Positions 20,037 through 28,116 of a stretch of 64,000 nt of DNA are shown here, one piece after another. The translations under genes were made by a program, and so were the position numbers. A model generated the notes under the pieces. The model had not been told where the DNA came from and ran no database searches. It saw only the letters and a program-made list of their open reading frames with translations. Numbering within the stretch: the first letter of the stretch is position 1; each line of letters starts with the position of its first letter. Origin of the DNA: Dictyostelium discoideum. Taxonomy: Eukaryota. Where the stretch lies: NCBI GenBank assembly GCA_000004695.1, contig CM000151.3, positions 5,568,001 through 5,632,000 on the forward strand, given 5' to 3'.

Positions 20037-20891
20037 TTATTGAGTTAAATTTTCACGACATGGGCAACAACCAAAGGGTTTTTCACCTGGTTTACAATAT
20101 TTAATATCCATTGTGCACATAGCTTTAGAACAATCTGGAACTTTGGTTTCTTGAGGTGTGCAAGGACAACAACCAGTTGGAAGTTCACCATTTTTACAAT
20201 ATCTAATGTCCATTGTACACATTACATCAGAACAATCTGGTTTTTTAGTTGGTTGAGGTGTACATGGACAACAACCAGTTGGAAGTTCACCTTCTTTACA
20301 GTATTTCAAAATCTTTGGACATGGAACTCTTGAACAATCTGGTTTTTTAGTTGGTTGAGGTGTACATGGACAACAACCAGTTGGAAGTTCACCTTCTTGG
20401 CAATATTTTAAAATCTTTGGACATGGAACTTTTGAACAATCTGGTTTTTTAGTTGGTTGAGGTGTACATGGACAACAACCAGTTGGAACTTCACCATCTT
20501 TACAATATTTGATTTGAAGAGTACATGCGACACCTGTACATGGTTCACAACGACCACAACAAGAATCGGTCATGTTTAATCTATAATATGGTTTACATAC
20601 TGGTCTAGCACATTTAACAAGGGAGCAATCTGGTTTGGTTGGTGGGAGAGTACATGGACAACAACCGGTTGGAACTTCACCATCTTGACAATATTTGACT
20701 TGAAGAGTACATGCAACATCGGTACAAGGTTCACAACGACCACAACAAGAATCGGTCATGTTTAATCTATAATGAGGTTTACATATTGGTTGGGCACATC
20801 TAACGAGGGAGCAATCAACATTAACTTCACTTTTAACTGATAGTACCAAACAACTTGATAGAATTAATAATAGTATTAGTTTATTTAACAT
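20037..20891 (-). CDS. Secreted cysteine-rich tandem-repeat protein (VWC-like CC-x-C-x-PC units)
   Basis: 284 aa with signal peptide MLNKLILLLILSSCLVLSVKS. It has 2 copies of a 48-aa unit (DCSLVxCAxPxCKPxYRLNMTDSCCGRCEPCTxVACTLQxKYCxDGEVPTGCCPCT) and then 6 copies of a ~31-aa unit (PDCSxVxCxxxIxYCxxGExPxGCCPCTPQxTK[K/V]). The underlying 90-93-nt DNA units are near-identical (e.g. ggtgtacatggacaacaaccagttggaa recurs at about 20270, 20361, 20461 and 20640). Confidence 0.8.
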   Translation of the reverse strand: MLNKLILLLILSSCLVLSVKSEVNVDCSLVRCAQPICKPHYRLNMTDSCCGRCEPCTDVACTLQVKYCQDGEVPTGCCPCTLPPTKPDCSLVKCARPVCKPYYRLNMTDSCCGRCEPCTGVACTLQIKYCKDGEVPTGCCPCTPQPTKKPDCSKVPCPKILKYCQEGELPTGCCPCTPQPTKKPDCSRVPCPKILKYCKEGELPTGCCPCTPQPTKKPDCSDVMCTMDIRYCKNGELPTGCCPCTPQETKVPDCSKAMCTMDIKYCKPGEKPFGCCPCRENLTQ

Positions 20892-22466: not shown

Positions 22467-25400
22467 TTATTGAAGTAAATTTAATTTTAATTTTTTACTA
22501 TCAAATGATTTTTCTAAATTAAAAACTTGATCAAATTCACTTTGGACACTAATATCATGATCGATTACAACTACAGAATCTTTTTCTTGTAAATTTCTAA
22601 GAAGATCACAAATGATTGGTTTAACGGAAGAATCTAAATGGTTTGTGAGTTCATCGATGATAATTGTTGTTATTCTTGAACCTGAATGGTTGAAAACCAC
22701 TTCACTTAGAGCAAAAGGGCTATAAGATAATTCTACACAACGTCTTTGACCACCACTTAATTGATAAAATGATCTTGGTACTAATGTACCATCCTTTGAA
22801 GATAATTCAAATACTTCTAAAGATAACTCCTCTTGATTATCGATTGAGAGTTTTGTAAATAATTTACCCTTTGATAATATTGAAAGGAATTGATTTGCAT
22901 AGGTTTCAACTTGTTCAATTACATTTAACAATACCATCAATGGTAAACCACTAGCACTGAAACCTGTCTCCCAGAATTGGTAATTCAATAATTGAGATTG
23001 AACATCTTTAAATAAAGATTCATTCAATTCAATTGAATTCATTAGTTTTTCAATATTTTGTTGTTTCTCTTTAATCTTTTCATTAAATGGATTTAAAGAT
23101 TGTTCCAATTGTAAAATTTGATTTTTTCTATTACCAATTGAGTCTTTTAAATAACCTAAATTAATTTCAATCTTTGAATAATCTTGAATTTGTTTATTTA
23201 AAAATTGTAATTCAATTTGTTTATCTTTTAACTCTAATTGAATCTTTAATTTCCTTTCATCAATTAATTTCTTTTCATTTTCAAATTCAATTTTCAATTG
23301 ATTTTCTTTATTTTCAAATTCTTTAATTTCATTTTGAAATTTTTCAGATTTAATTTTTAAATTTTCAATTTTATCTTTAATATTATTAGTTTCATTTTCA
23401 TCATTATTATTAATTAAAGTTTGACCACATTGACTACATTTATTCTCAATTAAATGCTTATTTAAATGGTTAATTGTATCTGTTAAATTTTTAAATTCAA
23501 ATTGATTTTGTTTAATTCCATATTTTAAATTTGTTAAATTTTCATTAAATTTAATTGATAATCTAGTTGAATCACGTTGAATTATTTCCTTTTCATTTTC
23601 TAATGATCTAATTAATTTTTGAATTTCATTAATTTTATCTTTTGTAATATTTAAATTATTATTTTCTTTATTATCTTCATGATTATAGATAATTAAAGTA
23701 TTATTTAAATTTTGAAAATTAATTAAATCTTTTTCTAATTGTTGATTTAAAATTGATAAATTTGTTGATTTTTCATTTAACCAATCTAAAGATTGTTTTT
23801 GAAAATCAATTGACGACCAAGTTGATAATGAAGATTTTTCATTTGAAATTAATTTTTCAAGATTATCTAATTCTGATTTTTTCTTTTTTCTCAATTCTTT
23901 TGATAATTTTGCAGCAGGTATACAAGTACCTAATGAAAATATACGTGATAATAATTCTTTTCTACGTTTATCAGTATCAGTTACAAAATTTGAAATTGAA
24001 CCTTGACCTAAATAAATACTCATTCTAAAGCAATCATAATCTAAACCGATTATATTGTTAATCAATGACTGTTGATCTAAAACACCCTGTTTAAAATTAT
24101 CATTATCCTCATCTAAACCATTGATAACAATTTTTGAACCGGATTTCCTAGTTTTGGATCTCACGATTTCAATAGATTTACAATCATCAATTAATAATTC
24201 AACTTTAACAGATGCCTGTTTAGATTGATCATTTATAACCTCATCACCTTTAATACTTGAACTTGAAGTTGACTGTTTCTTTGGAGAAGTATTACCATAT
24301 AAACACCACACCAATGCTTCGAATATTGTTGATTTACCAGACCCCATTTCACCTCTAATCATAATCATTCTATTTATCATCTCTTGTTGATCAACATCCA
24401 TTGATAAATTTAATTCTAATTCACCACCTAATCCACAAAAATCTTTAATTGTAATCTTTTGAATTTTAACTTTTCTACCCATAGGTACAATGGTTGGCTC
24501 ATTCACCATTGATAATATCTCTTTACCTAAATATAATAATTTCTTTTTCGATTCATTTTCTTCAACTAAAAAATTTCTTTCAATTTGTTGATCAATATAA
24601 TTTTCTAAAAAATCTTCCAATTTAAATTTAATTGGTGTTATTGTCGTTGTTGTTGTTATTTTATTATCATTTAAATTTTCATTTGTTTTAAAAAGTTGTT
24701 TTTTTATTGAATTTTCATTGATCATAACTCTTCTTAAATCAATGAATGGTGGTAAAGAATTAATTGAATCAATATAATCTTTTGATTTCATATTATCTAA
24801 AGTTGATTGAACTTCAACAATATCTTTTGATTTAACTAATGAAGTTTTACTTGACTCAAATGGAAAATATAATTTATGATGACGTGGTAAATCATTGAAA
24901 TCAATAAATCTTGGTTTAATTTCATTTGAATCAACAAATGCAACGCCATGTGGATCATTCATCTCTCCAAAATTTTGTTCATATGGACTGCCAATATACC
25001 AAAAATTATTTGAAATTTGTTGACGTTTATGATAATGTCCTAAATAACATGATCTAATATTATTACTACTACTACTATTATTATTATTTTCATTATTATT
25101 TTCAATTATTAAATCTTCAATTTGAAATTTACCATGTGATTTATAACCACCATTTGAAATCGCACCTTTAATTTCGGCATGTGCAAAAACAGTCCATTTA
25201 TTATGAATTGATGAATCAATATTTGGTTTAATAGTTGATAAATTTGTAAATAATTGTTTTTGTTCTTCTTTTTGTTCTCTCCATGGTAAATATGCAAAAC
25301 CATTATCATAATCAATGATTGGATCAGTTGCAACTTTAAAATTTGGAAATAGGGAAAACATTTGAATAGCATGTACACTACCATCAATAGAAACTTGATC

Positions 25401-25683
25401 ATGATTACCTGGTATGAATATGGTTTCAATATTACATCTCTTCCATTGTTCAAATTCTTTTAATAATTGATCAATATGTCTAACATGAAGTATATTACGT
25501 TGATGCCAAAAATCACCTAAAAATATAACTGGTGTTGGTCCAATATTACTATCAATATTACCATTATTATTATTATTAATTGATTCTAAACAACTTAATT
25601 CTCTAACTTTTTTTAAAACGTCAATAGTTCTATCTAATGATTTTGATGATACATGTAAATCTGTAAATAATAATCTTTTCCAA

Positions 25684-25726
<43 letters not shown>

Positions 25727-25823
25727 CTCTACTATTAGTATTACTAAAACCCCTTTTTATTTCATTTTCTATTCTTCTTAGATTAATTTTATTATTTTTT
25801 ATTAATAAATTATTAATCATCAT
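22467..25823 (-). CDS. Single-polypeptide SbcD-SbcC-like fusion: an N-terminal Mre11/SbcD-type metallophosphoesterase nuclease fused to a Rad50/SbcC-type ABC ATPase with coiled coil and CxxC hook
   Basis: 1118-aa uninterrupted ORF. Nuclease motifs: TDLHVS (motif I, D-x-H), FLGDFWH (II, GD), IPGNHDQ (III, GNHD), FAHAEI, YLGHYHKRQ (GHxH), YIGSPYEQ. ATPase motifs: Walker A IRGEMGSGKST (about aa 490), Q-loop SIYLGQGS, about 450 aa of heptad-rich coiled coil containing CSQCGQ (hook-like CxxC near its centre), ABC signature LSGGQRRCV, Walker B/D-loop TTIIIDELTNHLD, H-loop VVVIDHD. The order nuclease then ATPase mirrors the bacterial sbcD-sbcC operon order. Confidence 0.8.
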
Positions 25824-26154: not shown

Positions 26155-26499
26155 TTATAAATCGTCAATTGTGAATATTAAAAATAATTCTTCACTATTT
26201 TTTTTTTCTAAAAATTTCTTTTGTTTTTGTTGAACTATATTTTTTGAAGATGATCTTTTAAGTGGTGAATTCATTTGTTTGGAATTTGATAATTCATTTG
26301 TTACATATCTCTTTTCGTTACCAATTATATTATTATTGCTATTAATATTTTCATTTTTAATTGTATTATAAATATTTATATGGGTTGGGTATTGTTGTTG
26401 TTGTTGTTGTTGTTGCTGTTGTTGTTGATTTTTATTACATTGAATTTTTTCATTTATTTTGTCATGGCTTTTAATTTTAAAATTTAATAGGAATGTCAT
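26155..26499 (-). CDS. Small hypothetical protein (114 aa) with a poly-Gln tract
   Basis: The ORF is not an obvious antisense artefact of a neighbouring gene. It has no recognised domain and is AT-rich. Confidence 0.25.
   Translation of the reverse strand: MTFLLNFKIKSHDKINEKIQCNKNQQQQQQQQQQQQYPTHINIYNTIKNENINSNNNIIGNEKRYVTNELSNSKQMNSPLKRSSSKNIVQQKQKKFLEKKNSEELFLIFTIDDL

Positions 26500-27267: not shown

Positions 27268-28116
<849 letters not shown>

Follow-up and report, generated by a model that had tools for sequence, protein, structure and literature searches.

Proteins that carry an Mre11-like nuclease and a Rad50-like ATPase on one chain were described by Yoshida, Claverie & Ogata (Virol J 2011), starting from Mimivirus R555 (PMC3175470). 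Their 13 fusion cases include Q8T663 of Dictyostelium discoideum and D3AVR3 of P. pallidum PN500, together with proteins from Physcomitrella, Phaeodactylum, Micromonas, a C. kluyveri plasmid, a Deferribacter megaplasmid and Bacillus phage 0305phi8-36 (PMC3175470). These fusions fell outside the canonical clades, were not monophyletic and were proposed to be of viral origin; the donor lineage was left unresolved, the slime moulds contributed two members only, and localisation or organelle targeting was not discussed (PMC3175470). Here we analyse a fused SbcD/Mre11-SbcC/Rad50-like gene at positions 22467..25823 (minus strand) of a 64,000-nucleotide stretch of the D. discoideum genome, hereafter the window (assembly GCA_000004695.1, contig CM000151.3, forward-strand positions 5,568,001 to 5,632,000), which a preliminary description, made from the sequence without database searches, had singled out.

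A single-chain SbcD-SbcC protein in Dictyostelium was thus already published in 2011 and is nothing new by itself: Q8T663 is the published D. discoideum fusion and presumably corresponds to the window protein. The preliminary description knew of no characterised single-chain SbcCD, but its suggestion of novelty is not supported: fusions have been in print since 2011 and many viral ones exist, although apparently none has been characterised biochemically. Literature searches for the function or organelle targeting of fused SbcCD or Mre11-Rad50 proteins returned nothing beyond the 2011 paper. What is new here is the sharing of the gene across Amoebozoa, an uncultured viral donor lineage in which the fusion belongs to a module with PolA and RecA, and a leader of mitochondrial appearance. 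We estimate a probability of about 80% that the window holds a functional nuclear gene of ancient viral (phage-type) origin, encoding a single-chain Mre11-Rad50 machine.

Results

Fused relatives in uncultured viruses

The closest relatives of the window protein are ~85 non-eukaryotic proteins of ~1000 aa, which are already fused, share 32-39% identity over 92-95% of the length, and are colinear with the amoebozoan protein from phosphoesterase motif I to the H-loop of the ATPase. Since fusion and end-to-end colinearity are already present in these nearest relatives, the two halves were joined before the transfer, and the earlier suggestion of an operon fused within a eukaryote is not borne out. 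In a scan of 1.84 billion representatives, ~45 clusters fell below an E-value of 1e-100 and were followed by ATPases of phage size (~600-690 aa). Among 185,579 prokaryotic species genomes, a pattern scan gave one distant match only and no close relative, and a tblastn search against 50,697 phage records gave no close fused relative, the best matches being two-gene Herelleviridae versions with ~23% identity.

The contigs that encode these relatives are ~100-117 kb long and GC-rich (50-69%), and 12 of them are viral contigs of IMG/VR. The gene order PolA - orf206 - orf450 - RecA - fusion was found in all 12 IMG/VR loci, with a RuvC-like resolvase downstream of the fusion in some contigs. This viral lineage (L001, L004, L006-L016; ~100-110 kb) has a PolA that is at most 28% identical to that of any cultured phage. 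Most neighbouring ORFs (open reading frames) on the viral contigs had no PHROG or Pfam match, and PHROG annotation of ten neighbours on one of them (L004) recognised the RuvC-like resolvase only, with no capsid or terminase hallmark. In 73 of 100 bootstrap replicates the amoebozoan sequences branched from within the viral ones, and for this reason a virus-to-amoeba direction is favoured, though not proven.

An amoebozoan gene under purifying selection

Full-length fused orthologues occur in more than 10 amoebozoan species, throughout Dictyostelia and also in Acanthamoeba castellanii (XP_004338016) and Stenamoeba stenopodia; the P. pallidum PN500 protein (P0009) is one of them, with 44% identity to the window protein. 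The amoebozoan copies form one clade whose branching order resembles the species tree (bootstrap 97 with 77 sequences and 100 with 105 sequences). Two further searches found no other named eukaryotes in the near clade, the eukaryotic members found there being amoebozoan only. With ratios of nonsynonymous to synonymous substitution rates (dN/dS) of 0.11 and 0.21, the fusion gene is under purifying selection, and it has been inherited vertically within Amoebozoa.

The absence of introns noted in the preliminary description applies to D. discoideum only. The Cavenderia fasciculata orthologue has a single 55-nt intron (GTATGT...TAG, after codon 46; L036:6138-6192), and the orthologue of A. castellanii Neff (L037:3001-9119; also L005) is split by 30 introns of 54-135 nt each. 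The only intron of Cavenderia sits where the leader meets the virus-homologous body, a position compatible with addition of the leader as a separate exon. Expression, proposed earlier as a check, could be followed in Acanthamoeba, where one spliced mRNA covers both halves: the Logan contig DRR586372_1277 (3.5 kb) corresponds to a fully spliced mRNA with the fused ORF in full. About 20 leader residues found in transcripts (1116-1122 aa) are missing from the Neff gene model (1100 aa). GC content at third codon positions (GC3) of the D. discoideum fusion gene is 0.106, similar to that of neighbouring genes. Host-like GC3 (0.11), low dN/dS (0.11-0.21) and introns in other amoebae agree with the proposed horizontal acquisition followed by domestication.

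Domain architecture of the single chain

The gene is a single ORF of 1118 aa without stop or frameshift, and the claim that nuclease and ATPase share one uninterrupted frame is borne out, all motifs having been located. The coding sequence (22467..25823, which includes the stop codon) is complete, as judged from the ORF list, from orthologues and homologues that match end to end, and from AT-rich intergenic flanks with poly(T) and poly(A) runs. All domain coordinates given here are on the minus strand; the preliminary description gave no strand. We built an AlphaFold2 (AF2) model on the family alignment (mean predicted local distance difference test score, pLDDT, 81; predicted template modelling score, pTM, 0.67) and read the conservation of catalytic residues from an alignment of 58 homologues. 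In the model, a disordered leader (residues 1-43) precedes a nuclease core and β-rich region (~48-367) and linker helices (370-439), followed by an ATPase N-lobe (451-630), long antiparallel helices (631-793 and 809-954) and a C-lobe (960-1116). With Foldseek, the head matched Rad50/SbcC heads and the nuclease matched Mre11 nucleases.

The Mre11/SbcD-type metallophosphoesterase nuclease domain (aa 48-292; 24948..25682) was delimited from motifs, invariant residues, Pfam and Foldseek. Each of the six calcineurin-like phosphoesterase motifs previously read in the N-terminal part lies where it had been placed, namely DxH at 54-58, GD at 102-107, GNHD at 139-143, H215, GHYH at 262-266 and GSP at 277-281, and residues D55, H57, G103, D104, G139-N-H-D142, H215, H263 and H265 are invariant or nearly so. 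The Pfam searches suggested earlier succeeded in part. AAA_23 matched (E 5e-19) and SMC_N matched weakly, but the full-length window protein was not matched by Metallophos (PF00149), which reached 34.2 bits (gathering cut-off 21.5) once the Dictyostelium poly-N inserts were cut out; three orthologues (P0013, P0087 and P0008) pass this cut-off untrimmed. Motifs I-V in order, together with the Metallophos match after trimming, identify a predicted nuclease of the Mre11/SbcD family. The AF2 model matched the Mre11 structures 3av0_A, 5dny_A and 6x1y_A (target-normalised TM-score ~0.6, E 1e-11 to 1e-12), with alignments to Mre11 chains covering 342-429 columns, and the predicted fold corresponds to that of Mre11, in which a phosphodiesterase is joined to a capping domain. 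The β-rich region that follows the nuclease core in the AF2 secondary structure (aa 293-367; 24723..24947) would be the capping-like part, by analogy with Mre11. Next come the linker helices (aa 370-439; 24507..24716), predicted by AF2 at 370-383, 404-417 and 423-439, which are a candidate helix-loop-helix docking on the base of the Rad50 coiled coil; a Dictyostelium-specific insert (aa 371-388) lies within this region. The helices end 12 residues before the ATPase, a gap that fits the 9-12-residue linker estimated for fusion proteins (PMC3175470).

The second half contains the complete Rad50/SbcC-type ABC ATPase proposed in the preliminary description, with all motifs found and profile matches to heads in the PDB. 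Its N-lobe (aa 451-630; 23934..24473), supported by AAA_23, PDB profile matches and motifs, includes the Walker A motif GEMGSGKST (491-499) and the Q-loop (604-609), and its C-lobe (aa 960-1116; 22476..22946), supported by motifs, invariance and PDB entries 3qku and 1f2t, includes LSGGQ (1022-1026), the Walker B/D-loop IIIDELTNHLD (1054-1064) and the H-loop VIDHD (1086-1090). The Rad50/SbcC ABC motifs are thus split between an N-terminal and a C-terminal lobe, and G491-K497 of Walker A, Q607, S1023-G-G1025, D1057-E1058 and H1089 are invariant or nearly so. Between the lobes, an antiparallel coiled coil (aa 631-793 and 809-954) with a CxxC hook at its apex (aa 794-808; together 22962..23933) is indicated by AF2, invariant cysteines and zinc-hook matches. 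The hook motif CSQCGQ lies at 796-801, with C796 and C799 invariant across the 58 sequences. As anticipated, the modelled coiled coil folds back, C796 and C799 being placed at the turn between the two long helices in what is a putative zinc hook; the ~450 aa claimed for the coiled coil was an overestimate, since AF2 gives ~325 aa in total.

Relation to known Mre11-Rad50 and SbcCD systems

Profile searches set the protein apart from canonical families. The PHROG profiles for SbcC-like (PHROG 77) and SbcD-like (PHROG 100) proteins matched at 4e-64 and 6e-23, and a profile of the family matched archaeal Rad50 (3aux, 8e-22), E. coli SbcC (6s6v, 4e-21), T. maritima Mre11 (1e-7) and the Rad50 zinc-hook structures 6zff and 1l8d (6e-6 and 2e-5). 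As the preliminary description had held, the protein is distinct from canonical eukaryotic Mre11 and Rad50: its best profile matches are archaeal or bacterial Rad50/SbcC and T. maritima Mre11, and human RAD50 was reached at only 7e-6. It is not an SbcC orthologue, as the NCBIfam sbcc model (TIGR00618) scored 72 bits, far under its cut-off of 478.5. Archaeal Rad50 NCBIfam models scored 47-55 bits (cut-offs 700-1087) and the sbcd model (TIGR00619) 15.6 bits (cut-off 77.65), and by these scores the protein lies outside the canonical bacterial SbcC and archaeal Rad50 equivalogs. Nor does it belong to the eukaryotic Mre11-Rad50-Nbs1 (MRN) complex, being a single chain whose closest relatives are viral or prokaryote-type. 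With one ORF, the nuclease first and a position outside the canonical clades, it belongs to the Mre11/Rad50 fusion proteins of Yoshida et al. (2011), with which it shares a single chain that has the Metallophos nuclease at its N-terminal and the Rad50-like ATPase at its C-terminal end. Within these non-monophyletic fusions it belongs to a clade made up of Amoebozoa and uncultured viruses, separate from the plant, alga and diatom clade. A fold search of viral proteins recovered the same single-chain architecture in Listeria phage LMTA-57, many Mimiviridae, Tenacibaculum phages and Tetraselmis virus 1.

The best match at the level of families is with the SbcD/SbcC-like nucleases of phages (T4 gp47/gp46, PHROG 100 and 77, and the 'recombination exonuclease A/B' of Herelleviridae), which have a similarly short coiled coil and lie within replication and recombination modules beside a RecA/UvsX-type recombinase. 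In cultured phages, however, these are mostly two genes with ~23% identity, whereas here a single chain is encoded in a eukaryotic nucleus. E. coli SbcCD (6s6v, 7yzp; the latter among the Foldseek matches) has the same two catalytic modules and zinc-hook coiled coil, and presumably the same ATP-gated mechanism of hairpin and end cleavage, but consists of two polypeptides, with an SbcC of 1048 aa and much longer coiled-coil arms. Eukaryotic MRN (7zr1, 9q9h) has the same head and nuclease folds by Foldseek, but separate subunits, with an Mre11 of ~700 aa, a Rad50 of ~1300 aa and an Nbs1 partner. The SMC-like ATPases LmuB of Lamassu, DndD and PbeC likewise have a coiled coil and an ABC head of the Rad50 type (PADLOC LmuB, 2e-26), but work with separate effector genes (LmuA, LmuC and others) and are without an Mre11 nuclease. 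We rejected a Lamassu or defence assignment, as the LmuB match reflects generic Rad50 similarity, no partner genes lie nearby (the neighbouring ORFs being unrelated eukaryotic genes), and the viral context is one of replication.

An acid-poor leader in amoebozoan copies

Amoebozoan copies have 40-69 residues before motif I, versus a median of 26 in viral copies. In D. discoideum this leader (aa 1-47; 25683..25823), a candidate mitochondrial presequence followed by a poly-N tract, was delimited by comparison with viral copies and by low model confidence, residues 1-43 being disordered in the AF2 model (pLDDT <50). As presequence-like we counted an amphipathic N-terminal stretch of 20-60 aa with basic and hydroxylated residues and few acidic ones, which non-organellar homologues lack. 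In eight of the ten amoebozoan leaders, residues 1-40 include neither Asp nor Glu, and Ser, Thr, Arg and Lys are abundant; presequence-like composition and extra length coincide in 8 of 10 copies, with a poorer fit in group-4 Dictyostelium. The leader sequences are not alignable with each other, and an acid-poor composition kept nonetheless is a pattern typical of targeting peptides. The composition of the leader thus suggests mitochondrial import of the amoebozoan protein.

Organelle-type leaders in plants, algae and diatoms

Fusions of plants, green and red algae and diatoms form a separate, distantly related clade at ~21% identity. These plastid-lineage proteins (P0064-P0073, P0135-P0144, P0152) are 1100-1600 aa long with N-terminal leaders of 70-200 aa, and diatom copies have a signal peptide first and then an 'ASSFQ'-type motif, resembling bipartite plastid-targeting signals.

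Genomic surroundings

The window has ~20% GC with poly-N and poly-Q tracts, and contains ordinary Dictyostelium nuclear genes (TCP-1 chaperonin, class-I myosin, ComC and an FNIP-repeat protein); genes of this kind flank the fusion gene. A second D. discoideum assembly and D. dimigraforme have the same continuous fusion ORF with the same neighbours. Compared with the NCBI 'D. discoideum' ACTFIR assembly (L035:6001-9348), the window gene shows a synonymous divergence (dS) of 0.096 (~9% of synonymous sites) and a protein identity of 96%, and the exact window protein was absent from a collection of 15 billion proteins; a notable divergence thus separates the two 'D. discoideum' sources.

A 114-aa poly-Q/N-rich ORF (26155-26499, minus strand) lies ~330 bp upstream of the fusion gene; it ends in TAA and is followed by a poly(A) run of ~70 nt. 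Its homologue is called as a separate gene of 106-115 aa in L034 and L035, and in D. firmibasis appears to have been joined by mistake to the N-terminus of the fusion model (P0003, 1183 aa). In a dictyostelid-like EukProt model of 1906 aa (P0010), the fusion body occurs together with BRCA2 helical and OB1 domains; this model probably represents two neighbouring genes merged by annotation. On the downstream side, a 284-aa protein (20037-20891, minus strand) with a signal-peptide-like start and ~8 tandem Cys-rich repeats (motif ...GCCPCTPQPTKKPDCS...) had no Pfam match, and is conserved at this position, likewise with 284 aa, in the second D. discoideum assembly (L035). A 282-aa ORF on the plus strand (27268-28116) contains an unbroken poly-Asn run of ~70 residues, with a poly-Leu ORF (27516-27989) on the complementary strand.

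Discussion

Several points weigh against the reading preferred here. For fused Mre11-Rad50 proteins of any kind, our literature search returned neither biochemical nor genetic data. Neither a capsid nor a terminase gene was seen in the +/-10 kb covered around the viral fusion, and the label 'phage' rests on IMG/VR membership and gene content. The viral sequences were monophyletic in 27-67% of replicates, in neighbour-joining trees only, and whether Amoebozoa are nested in the viral clade or sister to it is not firmly resolved. As for the leader, that of group-4 Dictyostelium fits the canonical pattern less well, with Glu as residues 19 and 21, and the Acanthamoeba protein was not found, by accession or peptide strings, in the searched part of the supplement of the 2014 A. 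castellanii mitochondrial proteome.

Other accounts of the origin fare worse than transfer from a virus. We found no point in favour of an assembly error, contamination or a pseudogene, and give this explanation a negligible chance: the preliminary description had itself raised the case of two genes joined by a sequencing or assembly error, which is excluded by independent assemblies with conserved synteny, more than 10 amoebozoan species and the Acanthamoeba transcript, and a gene with host-like GC3, ordinary nuclear genes at its flanks, purifying selection, and Acanthamoeba introns with a spliced transcript is refuted as an artefact. Fusion inside a eukaryote of a transferred bacterial sbcD-sbcC operon would account for the domain order, which matches that operon, and cultured Herelleviridae phages do keep two adjacent genes. 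It is nevertheless contradicted by the closest non-eukaryotic relatives, ~85 of ~85 of which are already a single chain of ~1000 aa, and by the far greater distance of the two-gene versions (~23% identity), making it very improbable. A further alternative is vertical descent, whether the source was the mitochondrial endosymbiont or the last eukaryotic common ancestor, followed by loss from nearly every other eukaryote, the viral genes being captures from cells. Other phage-like mitochondrial replication proteins are ancient, and the rooting of Amoebozoa versus the viral clade is not firm, both of which speak for such a history. We consider it unlikely all the same, given that eukaryotic members of the near clade were found only in Amoebozoa, that no close relative was found in the 185,579 prokaryotic species genomes, that the plant, algal and diatom fusions are a separate clade at ~21% identity, and that a 'cell-central' scenario was judged unlikely by the 2011 authors (PMC3175470).

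Where the protein acts is a separate matter. Mitochondrial function is a tentative proposal drawn from the leader, which we hold at somewhat under even odds. The same enzyme might instead be an auxiliary end and hairpin nuclease of the nucleus, its leader being only a low-complexity extension. E. coli SbcCD is a nuclease of hairpins and palindromes, and possible nuclear targets would include palindromes or hairpins of an AT- and repeat-rich genome, the palindromic extrachromosomal ribosomal DNA, or invading viral and mobile DNA. This nuclear role would gain from the less presequence-like leader of D. discoideum compared with other amoebae, from the proteome result given above, and from the weak profile similarity to the defence SMC protein LmuB (PADLOC 2e-26). 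Yet that similarity is of the generic Rad50/SMC kind, with no LmuA- or LmuC-like partner nearby, and the viral relatives have their gene in a replication and recombination module rather than a defence island; the anti-mobile-element role considered in the preliminary description likewise finds no support in gene context. Amoebozoan lineages diverged roughly a billion years ago, and across that divergence unrelated leader sequences keep an acid-free, Ser/Thr/Arg-rich make-up that is typical of targeting peptides. The nucleus, moreover, already has canonical Mre11 and Rad50, the presence of which elsewhere in the D. discoideum genome was one of the checks suggested at the outset (XP_629462 and XP_628997; PMC3175470). 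We therefore regard a nuclear auxiliary nuclease as rather unlikely, less so than the other alternatives but behind a mitochondrial enzyme.

If the protein works like its homologues SbcCD, Mre11-Rad50 and T4 gp46/47, two chains would dimerise through their nuclease domains and zinc hooks, ATP binding would engage both Rad50 heads as a clamp on DNA ends or hairpins, and ATP hydrolysis would give the Mn2+-dependent nuclease access, so that hairpins and blocked ends are cut and resection starts. Such resection could yield substrates for RecA-type recombination. In large phages, SbcC and SbcD have been described as an end-processing complex of nearly universal occurrence (PMC7824862), and the viral fusion, beside RecA and often a resolvase, resembles the toolkit of recombination-dependent replication. 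More tentatively, the amoebozoan protein may be imported into mitochondria and act on mitochondrial DNA (mtDNA), in recombination-dependent replication or repair, with nuclear breaks perhaps left to the canonical Mre11-Rad50 complex.

Taken together, what could matter beyond the published fusion is a defined viral donor lineage, an ancient acquisition shared across Amoebozoa, and an organelle-targeting hypothesis. The leader predicts mitochondrial localisation and an mtDNA phenotype, for which D. discoideum is a tractable model, and a natural single-chain complex would lend itself well to structural studies of the Mre11-Rad50 ATP cycle. The plant, algal and diatom lineage, which may have acquired its fusion independently, also has organelle-type leaders, and fused SbcDC may be a recurrent module of organelle-genome maintenance. 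One scenario that we find attractive, while rating it below an even chance, is that a phage fusion was captured before the major amoebozoan lineages split, received a mitochondrial presequence, and became an end-processing nuclease for RecA-dependent replication or repair of mtDNA, perhaps as one instance of such a recurrent organelle-genome module. If this is true, the mitochondrial DNA machinery would gain one more phage-derived part.

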